A DNA stretch of 64,000 bases from Eledone cirrhosa (GCA_964016885.1 OZ024742.1:279248001-279312000), one strand, 5' to 3'. Positions 8,485 to 60,692 are shown, counted from the stretch's first letter. Program-made: numbers and translations. The notes: generated by a model not told the origin, from the sequence alone.

Positions 8485-8597
8485 TATTAAAATAACAGAT
8501 TACAGTTTAAGCAAAGAATAGCTGCTTTCTCCATTAACGGGATCTTCTGATTGAGCCCTCTTTGGACTTTAGTCTTCAAATTTATTATTATTACTAT
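8485..8597. mobile_element. Short (TA)n-embedded module, family C, made of two inverted non-overlapping pieces
   Basis: 8486-8550 is the reverse complement of ~19390-19457; 8553-8597 matches ~19507-19552 directly. Confidence 0.7.
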
Positions 8598-8867
8598 ATA
8601 TATATATAAATATATATATATATATATATATATATATATATATATATATATATATATATATATATATATATATATATATATATATATATATATATATATA
8701 TATATATATATATAGAGAGAGAGAGAGAGAGAGAGAGAGAGAGAGAGAGAGAGAGAGAGAATTAGTACATCTACCAACATATGTGTACAGATGTACACTC
8801 ATGCTAGCAAATATATAAGTTATGTCTTAGTACCTATGTGGTTCTATGCAGGTGAATGCAGAACAAT

Positions 8868-9384
8868 TATATGAAAGACGTAAAATAAGAAAATTTTAAA
8901 AATTAAAAATCAACTTACTAAAATTTTCACTCCAACTAATTAGTTTCTGTAATGAGATAAATATAGTTACATAATATATATAACTATAGAGAATTCATTA
9001 CGTCATCTGGGAGTCTATTCTCAGCTAAGTTCCCAGGAAATGCGCGGACACTAGGAACCCATATAAAAATAATAATTCAGTAGATGGAATGAAGCTAGCA
9101 TGGACTAAATTCCGGAGCACTGAAAAAATTTCACTGCCTCTGGTCAGTGGCAGATTCATTCCATCTACTGAATTATTATTTTTATATGGGTTCCTATTGT
9201 CCGCGCATTGCCTGGGAACTTAGATGAGAATAGAGTCCCTGATGACGTAATGAATTCTCTATAGTTATATATATTATGTAACTATATTTATCCCATTACA
9301 GAAACTAATTAGTTGGAGTGAAAATTTTAGTAAGTAAGTTGATTTCGAAATTTTTAAATTTTCTTATTTTACGTCTTTCATATA
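8868..9384. mobile_element. Fold-back module, family B: arms 8868-9093 and 9155-9384
   Basis: ~225-bp arms are reverse complements. The left arm plus spacer is homologous to 46683-46960. The right end runs into (TA)n. Confidence 0.88.
9234..9319 (+). ncRNA. Minimal hammerhead ribozyme (family B)
   Basis: A(G/C)TCC-CTGATGA-cGTAATG...CATTACa-GAAAC-TAATTA-GTT-GGAGT; palindromic stem III AACTAATTAGTT. Confidence 0.72.
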
Positions 9385-9460
9385 TATACATATATATATA
9401 TATATATATATATATATATATATATATATATATATATATATATATATATATATATATATA

Positions 9461-10340
9461 ATTATAGTTCTGGTATGTCAAATTAATACCATTGAACAAC
9501 CCTGTATCATAGACAACCTATATATTTCCAGGGGTATTTCGTACCTGTGGGCATATTAACTTCATTTAATAATCTCCGTTATGTAGAGAACAAATCTGTT
9601 GTTATATTTGGCTGCTATTTTTAGTGACGGTGTAGACAACACGTCAATGTTTACTTCCGCTTTTGCTACGGATGGTTCAAGTATAGGTCACATTTTGGCC
9701 TCATTCGATCCTGTACTAGCTAGTAGATGGCAATATATTTTGCCGTTCCTGGGACTTTTTGTCCTAGGAAAGGAAAATGCTCTCTGATGAACTTCACTTT
9801 TCCATTGGAGGTCCCTTGGATTTCTAATGTTTTGTGAAGCGAAACCGTTCGGTAAAAGCACTGGTGTGAGTAAATATTTAAATTATATTTTTTAATTTAT
9901 TTAAAAAAAAATGTTTGAATTTTGCTTGTTCTGCTTATCTCAATATTATAGTTCTGGTATGTCAAATTAACACCATTGAAAAACCCTGTATCATAGACAA
10001 CCTATATATTTCCAGGGGTACTTAGTACACGTGGGCATATTAACTTCATTTAATAATCTCCGTTATGTAGAGAACAAATCTGTTGTTCTATTTGGCTGCT
10101 ATTTTTAGTGGCGGTGTAGACAACACGTATATGTTTACTTCCGTTTTGCTACGGACTGGTTCAAGTATAGGTCAAATTTTGGCCTCATTCGATCCTGTAC
10201 TAGCTAGTAGATGGCAATATGTTTTGTGAAGCGAAACCGATCGGTAAAAGCACTGGTGTGAGTAAATATTTAAATTATATTTTTTTATTTATTTTAAAAA
10301 AATTGTTTGAATTTTGCTTGTTCTGCTTATCTCCATATTA
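9461..10340 (+). repeat. Head-to-tail dimer (~485 bp plus ~395 bp) between (TA)n tracts, retrozyme/pLTR-like
   Basis: 9461-9945 is repeated at 9946-10340; the second copy has a ~90-nt internal deletion. Confidence 0.85.
9778..9860 (+). ncRNA. Type I hammerhead ribozyme in the tandem unit
   Basis: TGCTCT-CTGATGA-aCTTCAC...GTGAAGc-GAAAC-CGTTCG-GTA-AAAGCA. Second unit has palindromic ACCGATCGGT. Confidence 0.78.
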
Positions 10341-10602
10341 TATATAAATATATATATATATGGAGCCAGCAGGGGTTAAAACGTTATTTAACCTGATAGC
10401 TTTTTCGTTGCTTCGGTGTTGTGGGTAGGCGTGCCTGCCACACATTTCAATTTGTCCTGCTATCTAACGTATGTTATTACTCTGAGCACAGCTCAACGAG
10501 TGCTTGGCAGCATCATTCCTGATTGTATTTCGTAAGCTTGGCTACAGCCGAAACTTCGATTTTACTAAACTTCCATTTATATATATATATATATATATAT
10601 AT

Positions 10603-57344: not shown

Positions 57345-58960
57345 CTCTATATATATAAAATGGAAGATGTCTGTCTGTGTGTGTGTATGATTTTTATGCA
57401 TTTCCACTTTTCTCTACCGATTTTGATGATTTTTTCTCCAATGTACTCCAAATTTACCAATGATGGTCAACGCGTAATAATCTTTGCCTGAAATTGCCTG
57501 CTTCTATGAACAAATCGATAAAACTAAATACATGCTGTAACCCTCTCTCTTATACGCTTAATCCCTCTCTCTACTACCCTCAAAAATCTATAAAACTACA
57601 TACATGTTGCAACTCTCTTTAAAAGGTTCATCCCTCCCTCTTCTCCCCTCTCAGTGTCCTCTGCAACTCTCTTTAAAAGGTTAATGCCTCCCTCGTGCAG
57701 GGAAGGGAGATGGCCGGGATTGACTGTTGCAGGGATACCGCAGGGAGCGCCATGGCACTCGTGAAGGACCAAGCGTGCGGGTAAGGGAAAGGGCAGGGGA
57801 GGGCATGGAGGCCACAGAGCATGGATGCGGCATGGTGAGGCATGACTATGCAGTGGGACGATGGCATGCAGGGAAGGCAGAGGGCAGCACTTGATGGTGG
57901 CAGGGATGCGGCTTGGTTAGGCATGACAGTCTTGAAGGAGCACGGCGAGCAGGCAAAAGAAAGAGCTGAGGAGGGGATGGTGGCCAACAGGGAAGTAATG
58001 TGGCATGGTGAGGCATGACGATGCAGCTGCACGACAGCGTGCAGGGAAGGGAGAGGGCAGGCGTTGACGATGGAAGGGATGCGGCTTGGTCAAGCATGAA
58101 AGTCTTGAGCTCTCCCGGAGTGTAGGCAATGGAAATAGGCAGGGGTGGACGGTGGCAGGGATTCGGCATGTTGAGCCGTGGCAGTCCTTAGGGACCACGG
58201 AGGGCAGGCAAGGGGAAGGGCCGAGGAATGAATTGCGGCTGACAAGGCAGAGATGCGCATGGTGATGCACAACGATACAGTGGGTCGACGGCGTGCAGAG
58301 AAGGGAGAGGGAAGGGGTTGACGGATGCCTCGTTATGCGACGTTAGTGGGACCACGGGAATGAAGAGAGCGCATGGAGGCTCGATGATCGCTTGAGAAGA
58401 CTAGGCGCAATACAGGATGATGCGCGGCGGTATAGTCTTGATAGTCCTTATATAGGAAATGGAAGAATCGGCATAAAAGATTTGCTGAATATGGTGAGCG
58501 TTAATTTAAAGAGATTTACAGTGGATAATCCTGATAGGTAGAACGTTTTTTGCGTGGCGGGAGTCGCGACAAATGGAAGCAAGAAGAATGGCGTTTTTCG
58601 GTTACCGGATTGTTGCTTCTGGGGGTCCGATTATCGTTGATCCCCGCATCAAAATACATATCTACGTCAAATTTCATTGGATTCGGACAAATTTCGTAAA
58701 TATCGATTTTTGCCTCTGGTGATCCCATTATCGATTTTCCGAATAATTAATGTAACCCACGTTCATCCCCGGATAAAAATACACACTTGCCTCAAATTTC
58801 ATCGAAATCGGACGATTTTTGAATATTTCGATTTTTGGCTTCTTGTTAGCCTATTCCAATCTACGGGTCGAGTTTAATATATGTGTCAAGTTTCATGAAA
58901 ATTGGATGAACGATGTAGCCTGCAATTTCTTCACATACCAACAATTTTTTTTATCTTTAG
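57345..58960 (+). mobile_element. Helitron-like/composite repeat with an internal GC-rich degenerate ~170-bp tandem array (57690-58330)
   Basis: Starts TCTCTATATATATAAAA...TGTCTGTCTGT like 35924; GCAGGGAAGG(G/C)AGAGGGCAG...GGGATGCGGCTTGGT recurs at ~57868 and ~58041, with partial copies at ~57697 and ~58294. Confidence 0.45.
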
Positions 58961-60208
58961 ATATTATTTTTTTTTGTGTTGCGTATATGTATGTATGTGT
59001 GTATGTATGTATTTGTATGTATATATATATATATATATATATATATATATATATATATATATATATATATATATATATATATATATATTATATATATATA
59101 TATATATATATATATATATATATATATATATATATATATATATAAGTATATATATATATGTGTATGTATATGTGTGTCTATATGTATATGTGTATGTATA
59201 TATATGTGTGTGTATGTATGTTTATATCTATCTGTATGTATATGTGTATGTATATATAATCGTATATATTATATATTTCTGTTGTATTTGTGCGCGTGTG
59301 TGTATATATTTATATGTATGTATGTATGTGTGTATATATGTGTGTGTATATATATATATATATATATATATATATATGTATGTATGTATATATGTGTATG
59401 TATGTATGTGTGTATATATGGATTTGGTGTGTGTGTATGGGCATGTGTATATTTGTGCGTGTATATGTATTTTTATAATGGTTTTGTGTGTATGTATATA
59501 ATGGCTTCAGAGGGGGCTTGAGCTCTGCCGTGGGGTCAGACTTTTTCCTATGTGTGTGTGTATATATATATATATATATATATATATATATATATATATA
59601 TATATATATATACGTATTTGTATGTGTGTGTGTATTTCTGTGGTGGGGTTTTTTGTGTGTGTCTGTGTATGTATATATGTCTGTGTATATGTGTGTGTAT
59701 ATGTATAAGGGTGTATGTATATGCATCATTACATATCGTGATTTAATGATTATGTTCATTGATCTTTTGCTCCAGGAAATTGTTGAGTGTTGTAAGTCTG
59801 CTATAAGCATTTATACCCTTTTCTAAATATTTATATTTTTTTATTTATTATTTGTCATATTGCCAACTTTTTATTTTCATTTTCATTTTTATTTTTATTT
59901 TTATTTTTATTTTTATTTTTATTTTTATATATACAATATTTTTTTCATGTATACAATATTTATTTTTTATATATATATATAATAATTATTTTATATATAT
60001 ATATATAATAATTATGTTCTTTCTCATATATATATATATATTGAGTTATATAAGTATATGTGTGTGTGTGTGTGTGTGTACGTATGCATACGTATGTGTA
60101 TGTATATATGTGTGTGTATGTAAGTATGTATGTGTGTGTATGTATGTGTATATATATATATATGTATATGTATATATGTATATATATATATATATATATA
60201 TATATATA

Positions 60209-60500
60209 TATAAATTAATATATGATAAACACTTACGTGTTTTTGTTGTAATTGACAATAAAATAGCTAGAATGAAATATCTTAATTCAAATACATATAG
60301 TCTGCCTGTGTCGATCTAAAAAATAATAAATCAATACTCACATTCAATACTTCATTCTAACTATTTTATTGTCAATTACAACAAAAACACGTAAGTGTTT
60401 ATCATATATTAATTTATACTGCTCAGAAATGTTTCTTAGAGCTAAAATAATTGTAAATGACCCCATTGAGTGTAAACTCTAAATTCTATATTATATTATA
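60209..60500. mobile_element. Fold-back module, arms ~60209-60280 and ~60347-60418, tail to ~60500
   Basis: Arms are reverse complements; (TA)n on both sides. Confidence 0.8.
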
Positions 60501-60545
60501 TATATATATATATATATATATATATATATATAAATATATATATAT

Positions 60546-60692
60546 GCAAACGTTCTATTTCAATTGTTGGGATACAACAAGCAAATATTTTTATAACTGA
60601 TATAAAGCACTCAAAAAGTATTTGGAGTAAACATACGATATTAACAAATGGAAACTATATTTAAATATAGTTTCCATTTGTTAATATCGTAT
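60546..60692. mobile_element. Family A remnant ending in a loopless palindrome
   Basis: Reverse complement of pLTR ~2338-2440, folded back at GGAAACTATATT|TAAATATAGTTTCC. Confidence 0.8.

Follow-up and report, generated by a model that had tools for sequence, protein, structure and literature searches.

Short insertions composed of two inverted pieces of one sequence recur beside (TA)n tracts in a 64,000-nucleotide (nt) stretch of the Eledone cirrhosa genome (GCA_964016885.1 OZ024742.1:279248001-279312000; hereafter the window, with positions counted from its first letter). Which machinery makes these insertions, and why do they carry two arms joined head to head? A sequence-only reading of the window had attributed about ten of them to Penelope-like elements (PLEs) acting at (TA)n. 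To judge from the sequences analyzed here, the fold-backs are real, abundant, and PLE-driven. We consider it fairly probable that they arise by fixed-site twin priming, in which each of the two cut target strands would prime reverse transcription on one shared element RNA, from an outer site on one strand and from an inner site 60-115 nt upstream on the other.

The modules of the window were located by self-BLAST and then by mapping family references cut from other loci. Inverted arms were detected by self-BLAST at 8873-9379, 10607-10921, 18699/19458, 51625/52196, 52479-52564, 55907-56055, and 60636-60689, and all eleven loci named by the reading were placed by the family references. As had been claimed, ten of the eleven sit in (TA)n and join pieces of a single element head to head, whereas the locus at 52283 proved to be a composite of a family F piece and a family G module. 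At least five unrelated families had been proposed; we found seven lineages without BLAST matches between them. One lineage (18105, 60546, and 10603; family A at 18105) grouped with a PLE at 1230-6262, and another consisted of 8485, 18697, and 39930 (family B). The loci at 55907 (family D) and 60209 (family E) were related and formed one lineage, and those at 8868 (family C), 51624 (family T), 52283 (family F), and 52479 (family G) each stood apart.

Arm ends were scored at family loci taken from the top BLAST matches (173, or 164 after removal of 9 duplicates). AT-rich matches of 45 nt or less were dropped, and six family G loci were judged by eye only. The 164 loci comprised 78 head-to-head and 82 uninverted copies, two compound loci (L010 and L025), and two that ran off the fetched edge. 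The outer and inner ends were separated by a family-specific 60-115 nt, corresponding to the PLE tail, which was present on one arm. Among the 78 head-to-head loci, 63 combined one inner with one outer end, one was outer-outer, none was inner-inner, and 14 had one off-site end. Clean tail-to-tail modules were absent (0 of 164). The same rule was obeyed by 11 of the 12 copies with an inverted arm (one across 1.5 kb of other sequence) among 20 fetched PLE copies with long open reading frames (ORFs). The inner site also terminated 11 of the 82 uninverted copies, indicating that it behaves as a start site. Furthermore, (TA)n was present at the 5' junction as well in 22 of 44 uninverted tandem-family copies, suggesting that the (TA)n target pre-exists. 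Several insertion sites showed 4-6 nt of TA-like homology and others little. The reading had noted that the two arms usually end at different positions; the ends are indeed unequal, but the fixed inner and outer sites, split by the known PLE tail, had been missed.

The reading had called for a scan of inverted repeats for (TA)n flanks, and this was carried out on 99 evenly spaced 10-kb stretches (990 kb) of the 3.0-Gb genome after simple repeats had been masked. An inverted repeat was counted as contacting (TA)n if one of its arms ended no more than 6 nt from (TA)5. The proposed association was evident: 92 of 178 inverted repeats contacted (TA)n, against a rate of 2.2% among 8280 control intervals. 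Both sides were flush with (TA)n in only 5 of the 92, whereas a second tract lay 7-150 nt out in 66 (control, 16%), at a distance typical for each family. The 92 modules clustered into 45 sequence families and corresponded to a density of 93 per Mb, which extrapolates to approximately 280,000 fold-backs genome-wide, or 200,000 if both tracts are required. If this density holds, PLE machinery would be a main source of short palindromes in this genome. Repeat annotation may label such fold-backs as miniature inverted-repeat transposable elements (MITEs) or microRNA hairpins, and they may contribute to the double-stranded RNA load. The hairpin ACTC-N-GAGT was present in the tails of 7 of 41 families (control, 1.4%); folding of the tails revealed no common structure. 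The commonest fold-back family of the sample (15 of 92 modules) was an element of approximately 150 nt. Its 5' end is nearly constant, it has no more of a hammerhead than the second half, and its centre varied by locus.

Polarity was read from hammerhead motifs. An Rfam search of the window returned, among the best 150 of 298 rows, microRNA look-alikes of simple repeats, one small nucleolar RNA model, and two tRNA matches, with no hammerhead; we therefore used our own unvalidated descriptor, which misses motifs with a long stem II (e.g., family G). A motif was found in 18 of the 92 sample modules. It lay on the outward strand only in 17 of these (9 families), on both strands in one, and on the inward strand only in none, which supports the earlier claim that both 3' ends face outward. 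Polarity was also given by ORFs for the PLE and families A and B, by a tRNA-like domain for family T, and by homology to family D for family E.

The lengths of the two arms bear on how they were made. The tail-less arm reached further 5' at 36 of the 78 loci and the tailed arm at 34, and the two lay within 5 nt of each other at 8. In the full-length copies, the ORF-bearing arm was tail-less in six and tailed in six. The arms were not nested, in either direction, at 27 of the 78 family loci; of the 12 full-length copies, four showed the same (L243, L247, L251, and L256). Among non-nested arms, shared non-majority variants per 100 nt were more frequent within than between loci, at 1.52 versus 0.35 in family A, 0.99 versus 0.02 in family D, and 0.46 versus 0.13 in family C. 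By a crude count, junction homology of at least 3 nt occurred at 16 of the 78 loci, all 16 being among the 44 without apparent filler (7% expected). Eight centres were near-perfect, several of them at self-complementary element sites. Differences in arm length of exactly one unit were not accepted as evidence of a circular template, since several such centres lie at self-complementary unit sites.

In the mechanism that we favour, the endonuclease would nick both target strands in (TA)n, and two reverse transcriptase (RT) subunits would begin at the outer and inner RNA sites, respectively. The complementary DNAs (cDNAs) would stop independently and be joined at the centre, often via short homology. 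Overlapping cDNAs would yield palindromes, and non-overlapping cDNAs would yield simple inversions; a second DNA end that captured the first cDNA rather than RNA would leave an ordinary 5'-truncated copy. Overlapping arms from one RNA would require strand displacement without RNA degradation. Two family B modules are non-overlapping inversions, as the reading had stated. In the abutting inversion at 39934-40120 (the 39930 module), the left arm spans the tail and breaks off approximately 5 nt or less from the inner site, which is where the right arm has its 3' end; two polymerases meeting on a single RNA would be expected to leave this arrangement. The module at 8485-8594, found by self-BLAST and family mapping and derived from the 3' end of a second PLE, is a gapped version: its left arm (8485-8550, minus strand) ends at the inner site, and its right arm (8547-8594, plus strand) consists of the tail's final 48 nt. 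We further propose, tentatively, a wider scheme in which a PLE RT dimer would give each target strand one fixed RNA start, so that the tail and the inverted pseudo-long terminal repeat (pseudo-LTR) would stem from one programmed twin-priming event on a single RNA; the same machine would serve dozens of non-coding passengers, make new microsatellites by stutter at initiation, and account for 200,000-280,000 fold-backs in this genome.

Several observations weigh against twin priming at fixed sites. The queries for families A, D, and E contained the tail, which forced one outer end in those families, and families C and F lack an independent polarity marker. At 51 of the 78 loci one arm is nested in the other, an arrangement equally compatible with snap-back, in which a single cDNA (or antisense RNA) would prime on itself, the endonuclease would resolve the hairpin at the inner site, and later central deletions would blur the nesting. 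Palindromes are prone to central deletion, and such deletions could turn nested arms into non-nested ones and so mimic independent stops. The arm closest in variants was a locus's own partner at only 16 of 68 testable loci, and in a same-register test for a single RNA, variants were shared without preference for the same tandem register. Sharing within a locus fits equally well with a single RNA, with a pair of RNAs from the same source, or with gene conversion. Moreover, again by a crude count, filler or divergence from the reference occupied the centre at 34 of 78 loci. Snap-back is the process proposed for PLE head-to-head repeats in the available text of PMC3846280, and that of PMC8557442 ascribes the tail to endonuclease resolution; the shared variants and the eight near-perfect centres suit it as well. 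Under snap-back, however, the tailed arm should be the longer one in every case, and the four non-nested full-length copies would have had to lose sequence, up to kilobases, on one side only. Perfect centres at self-complementary sites would also be favoured by end-joining, and the modules at 8485 and 39930 would be impossible without deletion. We favour two primings because the arms truncate independently (36 versus 34), and snap-back appears unlikely to us. Similarly unlikely is dual priming, in which both DNA ends would prime on separate RNAs, each with its own RT. Overlapping arms would then need no strand displacement, the modest variant sharing without register specificity would be accommodated, and the process has been named for L1 (PMC2837659, in its available part). 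Nevertheless, dual priming offers no reason for the strict pairing of inner with outer ends (63 of the 64 pairs in which each end falls at a named site) and predicts arms of mixed subfamily more often than the variant sharing suggests. The arm-length, non-nesting, and end-pair data together led us to prefer twin priming at two fixed sites to both.

The remaining explanations have much lower probability. Successive independent insertions into one (TA)n tract, or later recombination, would account for the crowding of several families in (TA)n tracts, the compound loci L010 and L025, and the composite at 52283. Such a history is nonetheless very improbable for the modules at large, whose centres are seamless and free of (TA)n, whose arms belong to the same family and share variants, and among which no clean tail-to-tail pair occurs. 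MITE-like DNA transposons, with terminal inverted repeats, a TA duplication, and fixed palindromes, resemble the modules in being short, palindromic, and TA-flanked; the centres of two short families fall within approximately 10 nt, and those of three family G loci almost coincide. By contrast, the termini are asymmetric, the centres vary even in the shortest family, and symmetric repeats of fixed form were not found. Half of the loci (82 of 164) are uninverted 5'-truncated copies, and three lineages consist of the ends of PLEs with attached RT ORFs. On these sequence features the MITE reading is largely refuted, and the chance that it applies is slight; the variable centres and PLE origin claimed earlier both held. 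Palindromes beside simple repeats are hard to assemble, and an artefact of assembly or of fold-back reads would be conceivable on that ground. However, the arms in the window differ by 2.5-20% (identities of 80% to 97.5%), and their ends obey the family rule. When 51625-52254 was compared with four sequencing runs, head-to-head joints were found at many positions (15 listed and 30 more) in contigs of two runs from one sample, and 6 of the 15 listed family T joints also occurred in 1-3 raw restriction-site-associated DNA reads of another sample. Although this support is at the level of the family rather than of the window's own junctions, the divergent arms and the recurrence of joints in other runs' contigs and raw reads make an artefact extremely unlikely.

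How far does this arrangement go beyond known PLE behaviour? The statements that follow concern the available parts of the cited sources. For PLEs, inverted 5'-truncated copies and (TA)n target sites have been published (PMC3846280 and PMC8557442), the tail is one-sided in PLEs (PMC3846280 and PMC8557442), PLE hammerheads are known (PMC4209133), and a Hydra clade is reported to insert into (TA)n (PMC8557442). This clade (Craig et al. 2021) resembles the elements described here in the order of RT and endonuclease, in the motifs DKT, RWK-like (RWR), CxCX5C, CxxC, and CxH, in hammerheads, and in its partial tandem plus inverted 5'-truncated copy with a one-sided tail. It differs in size, since the unit here is 3.8 kb rather than generally under 3 kb and the tails are 60-115 nt rather than the printed 30-40 bp; what is available of PMC8557442 gives no end-pairing counts. 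Adineta vaga PLEs (Arkhipova et al. 2013, PMC3846280) share head-to-head pseudo-LTRs, junction palindromes, an optional tail, and an N-rich ORF stretch, but the model given there, self-priming on an antisense template, fits the arm lengths observed here poorly. A biochemical parallel is PAc (Poseidon, Anolis carolinensis, in vitro; Frangieh et al. 2024, PMC11167929), a predicted dimer that cuts and extends both strands and uses two internal start sites that delimit the tail. Hammerhead activity was dispensable for its insertion. The available text connects the two sites neither with the two strands of the target nor with inverted copies, and PAc initiates without target homology, whereas several sites here show the TA-like homology described above. 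In L1 twin or dual priming (Meyer et al. 2010, PMC2837659), a second nick likewise primes a second cDNA and yields inverted fragments with 3' ends outward, with a variable internal site, inversion-deletion, target duplications, and poly(A). Unlike in L1, the second site here does not vary, the arms overlap for the most part, and inversion is common (78 of 164 loci and 12 of 20 full-length copies). A target duplication is unreadable inside (TA)n.

Thus the layout, the tail, (TA)n targeting, and the two in vitro start sites are already published, as is twin priming for L1; the sequence-only reading had overstated the novelty. What is new is the rule of end pairing, counted over non-coding as well as autonomous families, together with evidence that speaks against snap-back in its pure form and a possible stutter at initiation. 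A literature search on Penelope and twin priming returned nothing on PLE inversions, as judged by title or abstract start, and no paper deriving the tail and the inversion from one two-strand priming event was found, older reviews and supplements lying outside the search. The available parts of PMC8557442 and PMC11167929 name the origin of the PLE tandem and inverted structures and of the one-sided tail as unresolved. With many recent insertions, approximately 45 families, and naturally uninterrupted ORFs, the prediction of one start per strand and independent stops is open to the existing in vitro assay.

The PLE of the window lies on the plus strand at 1230-6262. Its 5' pseudo-LTR (1230-2454) stands directly 3' of a (TA)n tract and is a 94% direct repeat of the 3' pseudo-LTR (5071-6262), which ends at the outer start site and is followed by (TA)n. 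Minimal hammerhead cores are predicted by our descriptor at 2268 and 6076. The ORF (2480-4552) reads as RT, an N-rich linker, and, at the C terminus, a GIY-YIG-type endonuclease, and it is interrupted by a stop at 4028-4030 in the window copy; relatives elsewhere in the genome have 750-amino-acid ORFs without interruption. The N-rich stretch that links RT and endonuclease (3935-4030) recalls the N-rich inserts in Adineta vaga PLEs. The domain order, that of PLEs with an endonuclease, was recognized by inspection of motifs (YRDD and C-terminal endonuclease-type motifs); Pfam and PDB sequence searches with an uninterrupted copy, and Pfam searches with five window ORFs, gave nothing significant. 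The layout likewise matched, with a partial tandem forming pseudo-LTRs, an inverted 5'-truncated copy, and a one-sided tail. The Hydra-clade motifs DKT (at 126), RWR (at 45, RWK with K changed to R), CxCX5C (at 609), CxxC (at 707), and CxH (at 734) were found, as was the (TA)n preference, judged on 3' ends. We therefore assign the window PLE and its relatives to the Hydra-type PLEs, from motifs set against the definition in the available part of PMC8557442. PLE ORFs were also joined to families A and B at other loci. From an RT search came 30,954 first-look candidates, of which 150 were scored; identities of 95-99% and open frames of 745-750 amino acids were common among these, and PLE protein was matched in 17 of the 99 sample stretches. 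From these copies the family looks recently active.

The other two modules of the PLE's lineage that lie before 20 kb carry intact hammerhead cores. The fold-back at 10607-11017 (core 10819, plus strand) has a left arm that ends at the inner site and a right arm with a tail of approximately 92 nt. The family A fold-back at 18103-18499, a pseudo-LTR of a PLE related to that at 1230-6262 (core 18396, plus strand), has a tailed left arm, and its right arm is without a tail yet extends 90 nt further 5'. In the short fold-back of the PLE pseudo-LTR family at 60546-60689, the left arm (60546-60663) is tailed and the right arm (60662-60689) ends at the inner site. The third family B module, an inversion at 18699-19548, consists of a long left arm (minus strand) without a tail, with a variant hammerhead core at 18764 (minus strand), and a tailed right arm (19241-19548, plus strand). 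Next to the 39930 module lies a fragment of another PLE (40203-41072, minus strand) with the endonuclease end and the CxCX5C linker. A further PLE end, related to 40203-40591, occupies 20097-20475 between two (TA)n tracts and has an intact hammerhead core at 20410 (plus strand).

Families T, C, D, E, and F consist of non-coding units of approximately 290, 541, 533, 566, and 605 nt, which insert as head-to-tail multimers. The family C fold-back, which the reading had started at 8868, in fact begins at approximately 8761, where its tail ends, and extends to 9379; the left arm (minus strand) has a 115-nt tail, and the right arm (plus strand) ends at the inner site. An older uninverted family C copy at 46682-46995 ends at the inner site next to (TA)n. 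The family D module likewise extends beyond the 55907 palindrome first described, to approximately 55503-56055, and comprises a long left arm (minus strand) without a tail, with a core at 55748, and a right arm (55988-56055, plus strand) that is the last 64-68 nt of the tail. The 150-bp palindrome is a mere overlap with a tandem-unit copy. In the family E fold-back (60213-60484), related to family D, the left arm ends at the inner site and the right arm is tailed. The family T fold-back (51625-52254) has a left arm of 1.3 units without a tail and a tailed right arm, with copies of its tRNA-like domain at 51731-51803 (minus strand) and 52023-52087 (plus strand). The family F piece (52283-52489, minus strand) is single, 5'-truncated, and itself uninverted; it cuts short the left arm of the short family G hammerhead fold-back (52483-52681), whose right arm (plus strand) is tailed. 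The two meet at 52483-52489 via a short shared word, such as a subsequent insertion accompanied by deletion could have left, or else a template switch, within a single event, from one passenger RNA to another.

Modules had been said to carry hammerheads often. Intact CUGANGA...GAAA cores were found in 4 of the 11 (10819, 18396, 55748, and the 52479 family); in the 8485/18697/39930 family the core is a variant one, reading CAGAAGA in 23 of 34 matches, and cores of the 8868, 51624, and 60209 families are half or decayed. This matters for the comparison with non-LTR retrozymes, which in the available texts (PMC7229834; bioRxiv 10.64898/2026.07.22.740005) are non-coding tandem units with type I hammerheads and proposed PLE derivatives. 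Families C, D, E, F, and T share the non-coding head-to-tail units, here of 290-605 nt, but a type I hammerhead in each unit was found in D only; C has a half core, and E, F, and T have no intact core. On this sequence evidence, C, E, F, and T work like retrozymes yet fall outside the class by its hammerhead. Inverted insertion and tails are not described in the portions of the two texts available ("inverted" occurs 0 times and once, respectively, and "tail" 0 times in the preprint). Family T is also distinct from tRNA-derived short interspersed elements, since its tRNA-like domain is internal (unit positions 54-126) and its insertion multimeric. The domain was called Ser-GGA by ARAGORN and is followed by a T run; the unit keeps a hammerhead-like stem and GAAA without a catalytic core. 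Promoter-plus-hammerhead repeats of Schistosoma, as presented in the available part of PMC6765202, are a precedent. Family T copies are 97-99% alike, and the sequence is also present in sequencing runs of other organisms; none of the runs listed was of RNA, which has no bearing on expression. From the common end structure, we infer that the non-coding units would be moved in trans by PLE proteins.

The outer ends of some families carry an additional repeat. In family C, (TC)n precedes (TA)n at 16 of 23 outer ends and at 0 of 23 inner ends (L190-L219), and the template there reads UCUCU; in family A, (CA)n is present at 5 of 29 outer ends. RT slippage at initiation likely seeds new microsatellites. 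A (GA)n run in the window (8714-8760, plus strand), flanked on one side by a (TA)n tract and on the other by the 8868 module's outer end, is a candidate for such stutter. The genome-wide strand bias of (TA)n(GA)n (43 versus 1) was rejected as proof of RT stutter, since only 10 of 46 sample runs lead into recognised family sequence.

ORF fragments at 54092-54814 and 45259-45777 (both plus strand) gave no Pfam match and are presumably pieces of other retroelements. An abundant dispersed repeat occurs in both orientations at 98-542, 25408-25597, 27735-27980, 31274-31933, 34174-34352, 47945-48131, and 49424-49621, and it also makes inverted pairs without (TA)n flanks.

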